Virus record (IMG/VR): IMGVR_UViG_3300046485_000109
Coordinates: 1 to 56,445 of that record
DNA: 56,445 bases
Source: a virus
Taxonomy: Duplodnaviria; Caudoviricetes
Direction: 5' to 3' (one strand)
In this document: one piece after another, positions 13,050 through 23,406 of the stretch
Layout of the letters: every line of letters begins with the position of its first letter
How positions within the stretch are numbered: position 1 is the stretch's first letter
The notes under the pieces: model-generated
Told to the model about the DNA's origin: nothing
Database searches by the model: none
Seen by the model: only the letters and a program-made list of their open reading frames with translations
Translations under genes and position numbers: made by a program

Positions 13050-13101
13050 TGTATTGCCTTAAAATAAATCGCTCCAAAATTACACTCATTAAATGTAATT
13101 T

Positions 13102-13172
13102 TGGAGCGAGAGAGAATCGAACTCTCAAGAGAGCAATGCAAATGCTCCAGTTTCCCATTAGCTTACCGCCCC
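13102..13172 (-). tRNA. tRNA-Ala(TGC), no encoded CCA
   Basis: GGGGCGG/TCGCTCC with G3:U70; GAGCA-TTTGCAT-TGCTC; TTCGATT loop. Confidence 0.9.
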
Positions 13173-13182
13173 ATAAATTTAG

Positions 13183-13294
13183 TTGATAAACAAAAGTAAT
13201 AATTGAGTTAAAGTTAACCATATTCAAGCTAGGAATCGAACCCAGAACTATTTTTTTGCAATAAAATGATAATCAATTATAAGCGGTTTATCAA
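13183..13294 (-). ncRNA. YrlA-like Y RNA with internal T-arm (copy 3)
   Basis: TTGATAAAC-CG...ATAATTGA-TTATC...CTGGG-TTCGATT-CCTAG...TCAATTAT...TTTT-GTTTATCAA. Confidence 0.65.
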
Positions 13295-14207: not shown

Positions 14208-15080
14208 TCAAATTGTTAAAGAGCATATTTTCTGTTTAGTTTTAAATTCTCCGCAGCAGCTAAGACTACAAAATTTTCTATTTTTTCTAATATCTCGCTG
14301 ACAAGCTTTAAAAATAATTTCACAATTTAAACATTGTAATTCACTCCAATTTCGCTTTGGATCTAAAATCACTTTTTCTTTTTTCTTATTTTGTTCTTTA
14401 CTCCATCCAATAGGAATGATATCTATTTTTAAAATTTTAGTATTTTGTTTTGGTTTTCGTCCTTTACACCAACCAGATGGAATGATGTCTGTTTTTAATA
14501 TTTTAGTATTTTCTAAAGTATCTAAATTATAAATCCATATCTTTCCATACTGAGAATTCTTTTCACCTTGCTGATGACAATTATTTTTATGAATTAAACG
14601 AATTTTTAGTTTCGTTTCATCAGAATGTGTTTTTCCAGTAAAAGTATCATATTTTATTTTACCTTCAGCATGAAGTTTTTTAGCTAGTGTACTCATTCTA
14701 TTTTTATTTCGATTTACACATTCTTGATTATTCCAAAAATATTCAGCAACTTTTTTACCATTTTCTTTTCTAAATTCTTGATTTTCCATTTGATTAATAT
14801 AATCAAATCCGCCGTGACCTCCACGGCGGAGATTATAAACATCTTCCCTCAAGAGAAATTCCTCAGTTACGATTTCTTTTTCTCTTGCATACATATCTTC
14901 AGTATTACTAAAGAATTCTAGTATGTCTTTACGAAAGTTTTCTAAACCATGCTTTTCAATAGCATATTTTAACACCTTTCCTGAGCCCATATACCCATCT
15001 TCTAAATTCTGGGTTTTATGAACGCCAACATAGATCTTGTTATTCACGAGGTTAGTGATTTGATAGATGTAATAGTACAT
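14208..15080 (-). CDS. GIY-YIG homing endonuclease (Seg-like) with NUMOD3
   Basis: YIYQITNLVNNKIYVGVH...YMGSG...YNL; GKTHSDETK; late promoter at 15100-15107. Confidence 0.9.
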   Translation of the reverse strand: MYYYIYQITNLVNNKIYVGVHKTQNLEDGYMGSGKVLKYAIEKHGLENFRKDILEFFSNTEDMYAREKEIVTEEFLLREDVYNLRRGGHGGFDYINQMENQEFRKENGKKVAEYFWNNQECVNRNKNRMSTLAKKLHAEGKIKYDTFTGKTHSDETKLKIRLIHKNNCHQQGEKNSQYGKIWIYNLDTLENTKILKTDIIPSGWCKGRKPKQNTKILKIDIIPIGWSKEQNKKKEKVILDPKRNWSELQCLNCEIIFKACQRDIRKNRKFCSLSCCGEFKTKQKICSLTI

Positions 15081-16312: not shown

Positions 16313-17224
16313 ATGATAAATTTAACACCTAGATGTTCATGTATTATTTGTAGAAATAATCAATCTGCAAAAGGCATTCATTCTCATTTTATAACAGCAC
16401 ATACAAAAGAAGGAAATGATAGGATTAAAAATACTTCAAAACATTCTAGTGCTAAAGCAACAACTACTCGCAAAAATAAAAATTTTATTTTAAATTTAGA
16501 AAAATGGAAAATATATTATTCTAATCCTACTAAATGTAAACACTGCAACCAAGATCTTGATTGGTTTAAACGAAAAAATACATTTTGTGATGCTTCTTGT
16601 GCCGCTAATTTTACTAATAAATTACGTCCGGTTGGGCATTCTAGTCGAATTAAAAATAATAAAAATAGATCAGACAAACTTAAAAATTTTTATAAAGATA
16701 TTAGTAAAATAAAAATTGATACTAAAAAACAAAAATTTTCAAAAGTATCGTTTTGTCAAATTTGTAATAAATCTATTCCATACAAATTAATCAAAACGTG
16801 TTCTTCTAAATGTTATAAACAACTGCTAAGTATTAAAGCTTCAACACGAATGACACATCCACAAAATGGAAAAACTATTTTATACAATGGCATTAAATTA
16901 GGTTCATCATATGAATTAAAAGTAGCACAATCATTAGATGAATATAATATTACTTGGACTAAGCCAAAACCTTTATTATATACCGATCCAAATAATAAAA
17001 TGCGTCGTTACTTTGCAGATTTTTATCTTCCGGATTTTAATATCTATTTAGATCCGAAAAATGATTTTTTAATTAATAATACTAATCCAGAAACCGGATT
17101 TAATGATTGTGAAAAAATTAAACGGGCTGAAATTTATAATAATGTGAAGATTATAATTCTTAATAAAAATCAACTTAATTGGAATACTATAAGATTATTA
17201 ATTTGTAGGGAAGGAGGGACTTGA
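16313..17224 (+). CDS. putative homing endonuclease: Zn-finger clusters plus PD-(D/E)xK-like nuclease
   Basis: Multiple CxxC; SSYELKVA...YFADFYLPDFNIYLDPK; late promoter at 16279-16286; inverted inside a tRNA gene. Confidence 0.75.
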   Translation: MINLTPRCSCIICRNNQSAKGIHSHFITAHTKEGNDRIKNTSKHSSAKATTTRKNKNFILNLEKWKIYYSNPTKCKHCNQDLDWFKRKNTFCDASCAANFTNKLRPVGHSSRIKNNKNRSDKLKNFYKDISKIKIDTKKQKFSKVSFCQICNKSIPYKLIKTCSSKCYKQLLSIKASTRMTHPQNGKTILYNGIKLGSSYELKVAQSLDEYNITWTKPKPLLYTDPNNKMRRYFADFYLPDFNIYLDPKNDFLINNTNPETGFNDCEKIKRAEIYNNVKIIILNKNQLNWNTIRLLICREGGT

Positions 17225-17284
17225 ACCCTCACTCTTAAGAACTAGCATCTAAAACTAGCATGTCTGCCATTTCATCACCGGCGC
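17206..17284 (-). tRNA. tRNA-Leu(TAG) body with non-cognate 3' acceptor strand (disrupted or chimeric)
   Basis: CTAGT-TTTAGAT-GCTAG; variable arm; T arm intact; GCGCCGG cannot pair with local CTTCCCT. Confidence 0.75.
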
Positions 17285-19963: not shown

Positions 19964-20091
19964 TGGAGACAGAAACTGGATTCGAACCAGTGACCCGCTG
20001 GTTGGGATAATCATTTACCTACGGTCCCTTGAGAGGACAAATTATCGGAAACGATGTTATGTCGGCTGCTCTACCACTGAGCTATTCGGTC
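19964..20091 (-). ncRNA. tRNA-like RNA with anticodon arm replaced by a permuted Y-RNA core (copy 4)
   Basis: Acceptor plus CCA, GCTC-AGTGGTA-GAGC D arm, ACTGG-TTCGAAT-CCAGT T arm; insert TTTGTCCT..GGGACCG...AAATGATTATCC. Confidence 0.7.
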
Positions 20092-22178: not shown

Positions 22179-22310
22179 TGGCGCCACTGGCGAGAATCGA
22201 ACTCACTACCAACTCCTTAACCTGGATAACCATTTTCGGTCGGTTGATATACTAGACAACAAAAAGTGAAAACGACTTTTTTAGTTGCTCTACCAATGAG
22301 CTACAGTGGC
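22179..22310 (-). ncRNA. tRNA-like RNA with anticodon arm replaced by a permuted Y-RNA core (copy 5)
   Basis: Perfect GCCACTG/CAGTGGC-G-CCA; D and T arms; insert TTTTTGTTG..CAACCG...GAAAATGGTTATCCAGGTTAAG. Confidence 0.75.
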
Positions 22311-23337: not shown

Positions 23338-23406
23338 GTGTTCAACAAAAAAGTTCTTATGGGGGATAATCTTAACAGGATAACCCATTAGCGAACGGGT
23401 GAACAT
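23338..23406 (-). ncRNA. minimal Y-RNA/stem-bulge-like RNA (copy 2)
   Basis: Core AATGGGTTATCCTGTTAAGATTATCCCC identical to copy 1 with different outer stems; own promoter TTTACA/TG-TATAAT at 23413-23440. Confidence 0.75.

Follow-up and report, generated by a model that had tools for sequence, protein, structure and literature searches.

A tRNA body with a Y-RNA-type module in a giant-phage tRNA cluster: a candidate Y RNA in tRNA topology

Introduction

Can a gene that carries every arm of a transfer RNA (tRNA) serve as a Y RNA instead of a decoder? This question is raised by a locus on the minus strand of a 56,445-nucleotide (nt) stretch of DNA from a caudoviricete virus (IMG/VR record IMGVR_UViG_3300046485_000109, positions 1 to 56,445; hereafter the window), where positions 22179-22310 encode a tRNA body whose anticodon arm contains a long insert. 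An earlier note, based on the sequence of the window, had described this locus, here called W1, as a chimera of a tRNA and a Y RNA, i.e., an RNA of the kind bound by the TROVE protein Ro60. We compared W1 with its homologs in other phages, with known Y RNAs, and with ordinary tRNAs. Our preferred explanation, to which we assign a probability of roughly 0.65, is that W1 is a phage Y RNA in tRNA topology, a Ro60-binding tRNA look-alike that does not decode. As part of this explanation, the body of W1 is most likely derived from a tRNA-Asn.

Results

W1 combines a complete tRNA body with a side branch in the anticodon stem

The following features make up the tRNA body of W1.

22179-22310, minus strand: W1, the whole tRNA-Y chimera, 132 nt including G73 and the encoded CCA (Rfam RF00005 at 22182-22310, 43.6 bits)
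22304-22310, minus strand: 5' strand of the acceptor, GCCACUG, 7/7 pairs with 22183-22189 (CAGUGGC)
22182 and 22179-22181, minus strand: G73 and CCA, respectively
22287-22301, minus strand: D arm, GCUC-AUUGGUA-GAGC (Rfam alignment)
22190-22206, minus strand: T arm, GUGAG-UUCGAUU-CUCGC, 5/5 pairs (Rfam alignment)

All parts of the body named in the earlier note, namely the perfect acceptor of 7 base pairs (bp), G73, CCA, and the D and T arms, are found on the minus strand. The Rfam tRNA model RF00005 spans W1 fully (model positions 1-71) when 68 nt of the anticodon arm are passed over, and its score of 43.6 bits lies above the cut-off of 29. The bases engaged in tertiary interactions (U8, A14, GG, and UUCGA) are present in this alignment, giving W1 the D and T arms of YrlA-type RNAs as well. 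What W1 does not have is the continuous 5-bp anticodon stem of a tRNA with a 7-nt loop bearing U33 and R37, and ARAGORN did not call it as a tRNA. When introns were allowed, ARAGORN called 18 of the 33 copies in the family described below, with assorted anticodons; because the splice models were inconsistent, this output was set aside.

Compared with an ordinary tRNA-Asn(GUU), W1 shares the acceptor, the D and T arms, G73, CCA, and GUU at the anticodon position, but differs by a 56-nt branch that splits the anticodon stem and by G33 in place of U33. The identity set of the asparaginyl-tRNA synthetase consists of the anticodon and G73. An ordinary tRNA-Asn(GTT), which is no close paralog of W1, is encoded at 349-422 of the window. 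The branch and the remainder of the anticodon arm comprise the following elements.

22224-22279, minus strand: Y-type module, consisting of a linker, helix P1, UUU, the P2 hairpin, CCG, the P1 return strand, and UUAUCC (covariance model R1, 65.8 bits; this copy is within the R1 training set)
22268-22275, minus strand: 5' strand of P1, UCGUUUUC, 8 pairs with GAAAAUGG at 22230-22237
22241-22263, minus strand: proposed Ro60 site, consisting of UUU, the P2 hairpin GUUG-UCUAGUAUAU-CAAC, and the unpaired CG of CCG, the first C of which closes P2
22225-22229, minus strand: invariant UUAUC, whose last C also serves as position 30 in the split anticodon stem
22283-22285, minus strand: 5' strand of the upper anticodon stem, ACU (positions 27-29), pairing with AGU at 22212-22214 (split-stem search)
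22212-22225, minus strand: retained anticodon-like element CC-AGGUUAA-GG-AGU, with its loop at 22217-22223, GUU at positions 34-36, and G33

The pairings UCGUUUUC/GAAAAUGG and GUUG-loop-CAAC-CG that had been proposed for the insert are present. Two other statements of the earlier note have to be corrected. It had placed the module in the position of the anticodon, but the module branches off between positions 29 and 30, from the 5' strand of the anticodon stem, and the anticodon-like stem-loop persists. It had also reported the 7-nt anticodon loop as missing, but the element that follows UUAU provides a split 5-bp stem and a 7-nt loop: when the insert is skipped, all five stem pairs form (ACU plus CC with GGAGU) around a loop holding GUU. 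This loop is non-canonical because G33 replaces U33.

Comparative evidence for a folded module

We searched for the tRNA-plus-insert design by pattern scans over 2.9 million viral contigs. True matches accounted for 1 of 12, 10 of 24, and 5 of 21 hits in the successive scans (the last five were none of them new), and the remainder were chance matches or ordinary tRNAs. The other contigs with this design are mostly fragments or complete genomes of jumbo phages. The covariance model R1, trained on five copies, then recovered 15 good copies from five whole records (each with 2-4, all within tRNA bodies) and 10 further copies in 7 of 20 large TROVE-encoding records. The resulting family comprises 33 copies, from the window and from 24 loci in 20 other phage records.

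The alignment of these 33 copies was fitted to R1 and is thus biased towards the structure, so that the values are given together with those of shuffled alignments. In P1 (8 bp) and P2 (5 bp), 94.4% of cells are paired, compared to 75.7% in shuffles and 16-50% in slid registers. Compensatory cells number 82 versus 25.7 in shuffles, and 11 of the 13 pairs are changed on both sides (shuffle mean 7.5; P1 alone, 7/8). The observed covariation was reached by none of 500 shuffles. By this comparative evidence, the module is a conserved folded RNA with two supported helices. The earlier note had proposed to give up its reading if homologs showed no conservation of the CCG/UUUG/UUAUC core, which is not what we found: CCG, UUAUC, and the G-C pair closing P2 are invariant (33/33 each), UUUG is present in 28/33 copies, and UCG at the start of P1 in 27/33.

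A BLAST search with W1, one of the minimal copies described below, and a 3.6-kb region against 50,697 GenBank phages returned no match. A strict pattern applied to the genomes of 185,579 species gave two matches, both by chance and inside coding sequence, in genomes without a TROVE match.

The core of the module is placed upstream of phage Ro60 genes

TROVE was found in 4 of 5 and then in 1 of 4 module-bearing records (5/9 in total), including all three complete genomes. The five Ro60 proteins of these records share 50-57% mutual identity, while the nearest proteins of cultured phages are about 40-44% identical. Of the seven large TROVE-encoding records with R1 matches, six encode a Ro60 that shares at least 51% identity with that of G001, a 360-kb phage with chimeras of its own.

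A pattern for the core (CCG-N3-12-WUGR-N0-1-UUAUC) matched 6-12 times per jumbo genome, compared to 0-2 matches when the pattern was read backwards. The position of these matches was then related to 62 phage TROVE loci. Within 1.5 kb upstream of the gene and on its strand, the core pattern occurred 40 times, at 30 loci. The controls yielded no match on the other strand, none with the backward pattern, and 0 (same strand) or 1 (opposite strand) within 1.5 kb downstream. We regard this test of the upstream position as decisive: the core is associated with Ro60 genes. The copies found there are stand-alone RNAs, and a clean direct closure of the form stem-CCG...UU(U/C)G-stem was seen in only 11 of 33 distinct TROVE-upstream cores. 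Placement near the Ro60 gene on the same strand is a criterion by which Y RNAs have been called (Chen et al. 2014, PMC4201824, in the part available); here it holds for the core motif in relatives, at 30/62 loci, whereas the fragment carrying W1 has no TROVE itself. The earlier identification of the insert as a Y-RNA-type module gains from both observations, i.e., the same core upstream of phage TROVE genes on the same strand and TROVE genes in module-bearing phages.

The layout of the core points in the same direction. In the published description, the Ro60 site is a helix in which one strand has a bulged C and the other a 3-nt bulge, and a UUAUC motif is reported for loops of stem-bulge RNAs (sbRNAs) and vertebrate Y RNAs (PMC4726728, sections available). 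A helix with a closing G-C pair (P2, 33/33), a CCG (33/33), and an opposing UUU (28/33) are present in the family, which makes the P2/CCG/UUU element a putative Ro60 site.

YrlA-like RNAs carry the parts of W1 in circularly permuted order

Two TROVE-encoding records, G017 and G013, contain sub-threshold full-length matches to the Rfam model of YrlA (RF02553). These are RNAs in YrlA order, i.e., lower stem, CCG, UGGG-UUAUC, anticodon-like hairpin, variable region, T arm, closed acceptor hairpin, D arm, linker, UUG, and lower stem. Since they carry the parts of W1 in YrlA order, with the ends in the Ro-type stem and the acceptor closed, W1 is their circular permutation. The description of W1 as the topological inverse of YrlA therefore has concrete counterparts in phage genomes. 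As the closed-acceptor forms cannot be spliced into tRNAs, the junction of tRNA-like and Ro-type parts would be the design of a stable end product.

W1 shares with YrlA (RF02553; PMC4201824; bioRxiv 10.1101/312249; compared with the descriptions available) a tRNA-like domain with D and T arms that is joined via the position of the anticodon stem to a Ro60-type stem, and both are found in Ro60-encoding phages, YrlA itself and the W1-type RNAs alike. W1 differs by its open acceptor with CCA, the loop-closed Ro-type helix, the retained anticodon-like stem-loop, and the CCG/UUUG/UUAUC core. YrlA is defined by a GNCGAAN0-1G motif near the 5' end (PMC4201824, as excerpted). This motif is absent from W1, whose module reads ...CAACCGACCGAAAAUGG...; no G-N-C-G-A-A occurs in the register of the family, and the homologs vary there. 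By this motif, and by the RF02553 score given below, W1 falls outside the YrlA family in its present definition. Furthermore, all characterized Y RNAs have both of their ends paired in the stem that contains the Ro60 site, and YrlA has no free CCA (bioRxiv 10.1101/312249, according to the excerpt at hand). In W1, and in a second chimera of the window (W2), the Ro-type helix is instead closed by a loop of 10-13 nt, and the RNA ends at the acceptor.

Metazoan Y RNAs and nematode sbRNAs resemble W1 in the bulged-C helix opposite a 3-nt bulge, the upper stem, and UUAUC, and the minimal copies of the window share their layout with the ends in the stem (PMC4726728, as far as that text describes it). 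They differ in that the Rfam Y_RNA model gives no match and that W1 is permuted and fused to a tRNA. This likeness rests on short motifs and could be a case of convergence. The Yrl1 and Yrl2 RNAs of the Thermus phage phiLo are phage-encoded Y-like RNAs as well, which bind the phage Ro60 and lie upstream of its gene (PMC12135203). They are stem-bulge-stem RNAs with a CGAA motif, and the available part of that report describes neither a tRNA body nor an acceptor end. The "enigmatic" introns of Lak megaphages (Devoto et al. 2019, PMC6784885) are conserved inserts in tRNA genes of huge phages, including a tRNA-Tyr GTA; they can be likened to W1 by description only, and the passages available draw no link to Ro60 or Y RNAs. 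In print, as far as the sources available go, YrlA is reported from bacteria and 22 phages, and TROVE from a small subset of jumbo phages. A Y RNA in tRNA topology was not described in the literature searched, in parts of the sources; an earlier mention in reviews or supplements is possible.

Weighing the alternatives

A number of findings weigh against W1 as a non-decoding ligand of Ro60, and they are given here together with the explanations that they would suit. No TROVE gene is present in the window (16% of the genome by CheckV), and a search with its open reading frame (ORF) of 1737 amino acids for close relatives returned one weak 31-residue match. TROVE is missing from 4 of 9 module-bearing records, all four of them fragments (12-45% complete), and an R1 match was found in only 5 of 11 TROVE-encoding records that are at least 90% complete. 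In complete genomes, the tRNA-embedded copies do not adjoin TROVE and lie 13-100 kb from it. RF02553 remained below its cut-off in 5/5 related genomes (best 39.3 bits versus 69) and had no match in the window, either at the gathering threshold or at E-values up to 1; the Rfam Y_RNA and YrlA models returned nothing for one minimal copy at E up to 10.

The distance of the tRNA clusters from TROVE, the many module-bearing fragments without TROVE (the window among them), and the silence of the Rfam Y models would all be expected if W1 were derived from a tRNA and acted as a decoy or scaffold, its module binding some protein that is not Ro60, with the co-occurrence of TROVE reflecting the shared ancestry of one jumbo-phage clade. 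We consider this distinctly unlikely, as clade membership alone does not explain why the core is placed directly upstream of TROVE on the same strand at 30/62 loci, unlike in the controls, and as the layout of the core fits the known Ro60 site (PMC4726728, in the sections available).

Other findings concern the anticodon arm. In a uniform search for split arms in the 33 copies, compared with 200 shuffles, all five stem pairs were found in 17 copies (shuffle mean 3.9, maximum 8). All five pairs together with U33 and R37, i.e., a fully canonical loop, were found in 11 copies (mean 0.45, maximum 3), and at least four pairs with U33 and R37 in 20 copies (mean 2.7, maximum 7). These retained arms favor some tRNA-type use. 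The Asn-type copies of W1, G001, and G005, which belong to divergent phages, keep xxGUUAA and thus the conserved GUU, while their small stems covary (CC/GG, UGC/GCA, and CCA/UGG). Class II bodies carry GUA and G73 accompanies GUU, while other copies combine UCC with U73. From their survival it follows that the anticodon arms are read by some factor; the candidates are a synthetase, an enzyme of tRNA modification, and an anticodon nuclease.

Such arms, which are well above shuffles at 17/33 and 11/33 and whose anticodon often agrees with the body (GUA in class II, GUU with G73), are what W1 would have as an intron-bearing tRNA-Asn. Some endonuclease of phage or host would excise the module, and after ligation of the halves a tRNA able to decode would result, perhaps along with a free Y RNA closed by a hairpin. 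Unexplained "introns" in tRNA genes of huge phages are on record (PMC6784885, in the part available). We nevertheless hold splicing to be very unlikely. The restored loop of W1 has G33, and among other copies C33, loops of 9 nt, or stems with mismatches are seen, with only 3/5 pairs in W2. The insertion point ranges from 27/28 to 31/32 among copies. The same junction is found in closed-acceptor RNAs of YrlA order and in minimal RNAs without a body, neither of which could yield a tRNA, and ordinary tRNAs with the same anticodon co-exist with the chimeras in the window and in G001. Concerning group I introns, which have a length of roughly 200 nt or more, an Rfam search over positions 11000-41000 with E up to 1 gave no non-tRNA match (the group I, Y_RNA, and YrlA models were silent), and the insert (68 nt by the Rfam alignment) is by inspection too short; no bulge-helix-bulge motif is apparent. 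Due to G33, the branch in the anticodon stem, the co-existing tRNAs of the same anticodon, and the unspliceable closed-acceptor and minimal forms, W1 would probably be neither spliced nor decoding.

A last point against our explanation is the folding of single sequences, which recovered the comparative structure neither for W1 nor for W2. The minimum free energy of W1 is −37.7 kcal/mol, in a fold that pairs an A-run with a U-run, compared to −26.8 kcal/mol for the comparative structure, a gap of about 11 kcal/mol. As W1 favors another fold on its own, its structure rests on comparison and not on thermodynamics. That W1 is a functionless, decaying tRNA gene disrupted by an inserted repeat is barely credible, since the missing ARAGORN call, G33, and the single-sequence fold without cloverleaf stand against intact arms throughout, an Rfam score above the cut-off, an insert conserved with compensatory changes in 33 copies from diverse phages, and Asn-type copies of three divergent phages that keep body and loop while the stems covary.

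Discussion

As a Y RNA in tRNA topology, W1 would be transcribed together with the minus-strand tRNA cluster and excised like a tRNA, with RNase P acting at the 5' end and 3' trimming proceeding to the encoded CCA. The P2/bulge element would dock the ring of the phage Ro60 (TROVE) protein. The tRNA body with its exposed anticodon-like loop could then act as a tether or an effector, the role that has been proposed for the tRNA-like part of YrlA. W1 would thereby connect Ro60 with a nuclease or a factor that binds tRNAs, and it would not decode. A further-reaching proposal is that chimeras with an open acceptor are charged by aminoacyl-tRNA synthetases and thereby bring the phage Ro60, along with any tethered nuclease, to synthetases, EF-Tu, or anticodon-targeting defense nucleases. 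We rate this as unlikely; if true, it would couple RNA surveillance by Ro60 directly to the tRNA pool and would make the chimeras living intermediates in the origin of Y RNAs from tRNA genes.

The building blocks of Y RNAs appear here in true tRNA topology: the CCA end is open, an anticodon arm survives, and the Ro-type helix is closed. The chimeras sit inside tRNA clusters of giant phages and, in the window, are accompanied by minimal and YrlA-like forms, which presents the junction of tRNA and Y RNA as a permutable design. The repertoire of Y RNAs is extended by a phage family that the Rfam models did not detect here, and a concrete, testable candidate identity is offered for part of the inserts that have been left without explanation in tRNA genes of huge phages. 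The family also offers natural material for studying the function of the tRNA-like domain of Y RNAs and for the descent of Y RNAs from tRNAs, as suggested by Chen et al. 2014 (PMC4201824, in the part available).

Further copies of the core and accompanying features

In the window, the core pattern matched at five sites, all on the minus strand. Reading the window backwards gave no match, and over 200 shuffles the number of matches averaged 0.34 and peaked at 2, so that the features exceed chance. Besides W1, the following elements were identified, giving three forms in total, i.e., the tRNA topology of W1 and W2, two minimal hairpins, and one YrlA-like RNA.

19964-20091, minus strand: W2, second tRNA-Y chimera, with U73 and CCA (Rfam tRNA 40.9 bits over the full model, 20091-19967, 66 nt skipped)
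20005-20058, minus strand: module of W2 (R1 40.7 bits, E 6e-8; this copy is outside the training set)
23338-23406, minus strand: minimal Y-like RNA A (core pattern match), both ends in the lower stem, anticodon-like tip loop CUGUUAA
2050-2117, minus strand: minimal Y-like RNA B, with the layout of A (core pattern match; fold −19.6 kcal/mol, z −5.09, 0/200 shuffles as good)
13183-13294, minus strand: YrlA-like Y RNA (core pattern match; partial R1 match)

The inserts of W1 and W2 have UCGUUU(U/C)C, UUUG-hairpin-ACCG, and AAAUGRUUAUCC in common. W2 contains one C-U mismatch in the acceptor and 3/5 pairs in the anticodon stem; its UUAUCC abuts CAA, which is followed by the 3' strand. It belongs to a subgroup (with L016, L068, L072, L024, and L019) in which the module is located at the loop side of the stem. 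A comparison of four DNA sequencing runs showed no joint across the insert. One record in which 19995-20067 is replaced by 18 letters was rejected, as it represents an ordinary tRNA of another organism with 80% likeness.

The minimal copies A and B combine the core with a CUGUUAA tip of the tRNA-Asn type, without a tRNA body. Both stand alone behind promoter-like sites of the sigma-70 type; the site preceding A (23440-23413) has 11/12 matches, and the fold of A is weak (z −0.68). The earlier note had pointed out that parts of W1 closely match the minimal copies, and a 17-mer of these copies indeed has exactly two occurrences, both of them on the minus strand (2082-2098 and 23371-23387), where 0.20 would be expected. 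The exact core of the minimal copies had no match in the pattern scan of viral contigs. In the YrlA-like RNA at 13183-13294, the order is lower stem (UUGAUAAA/UUUAUCAA), CCG, UUAUC, a 5-bp anticodon-like hairpin with the loop AUUGCAA, T arm, and UUUUG; neither a D arm nor an acceptor can be made out clearly. As its fold has a z-score of −0.70, the helices rest on inspection and on the pattern of the family. It lies directly upstream of a tRNA-Ala (13101-13173). Elsewhere on the minus strand, a weak tRNA-like match of 31.6 bits (17206-17279) shows acceptor mismatches and a 3-nt D loop and was not called by ARAGORN, and an ORF for a GIY-YIG (SegE-like) homing endonuclease (14208-15080) lies within the tRNA cluster.

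Outside the window, the genes flanking phage TROVE encode an HNH endonuclease, unknown ORFs, and DHFR, with no RNA-repair partner within 2 kb. A tandem pair of Y-like RNAs (L076 869 and 989, in G006) is located upstream of one phage Ro60 gene and recalls the bacterial YrlA/YrlB pairs. At three sites (G001 146167 and 145619, and G003 113823), minimal Y-like RNAs start a few bases past the CCA of an upstream tRNA, so that tRNA 3' processing may set their 5' ends. An irregular copy (L017, about 87-252; G002 352957) has the core and a T arm after an unusual 5' part, with no recognizable D arm. G001 encodes ordinary Val-tac and Asn-gtt tRNAs alongside its chimeras, as well as a permuted transfer-messenger RNA gene (L162 8013-8450, tag ANDESYRVAA) beside its tRNA cluster. 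G003, a complete 368-kb TROVE-encoding phage, carries two amber-reading tRNAs with a CTA anticodon, labeled Pyl by ARAGORN (L164 199-272 and 2682-2759), which may serve stop-codon reassignment or suppression.

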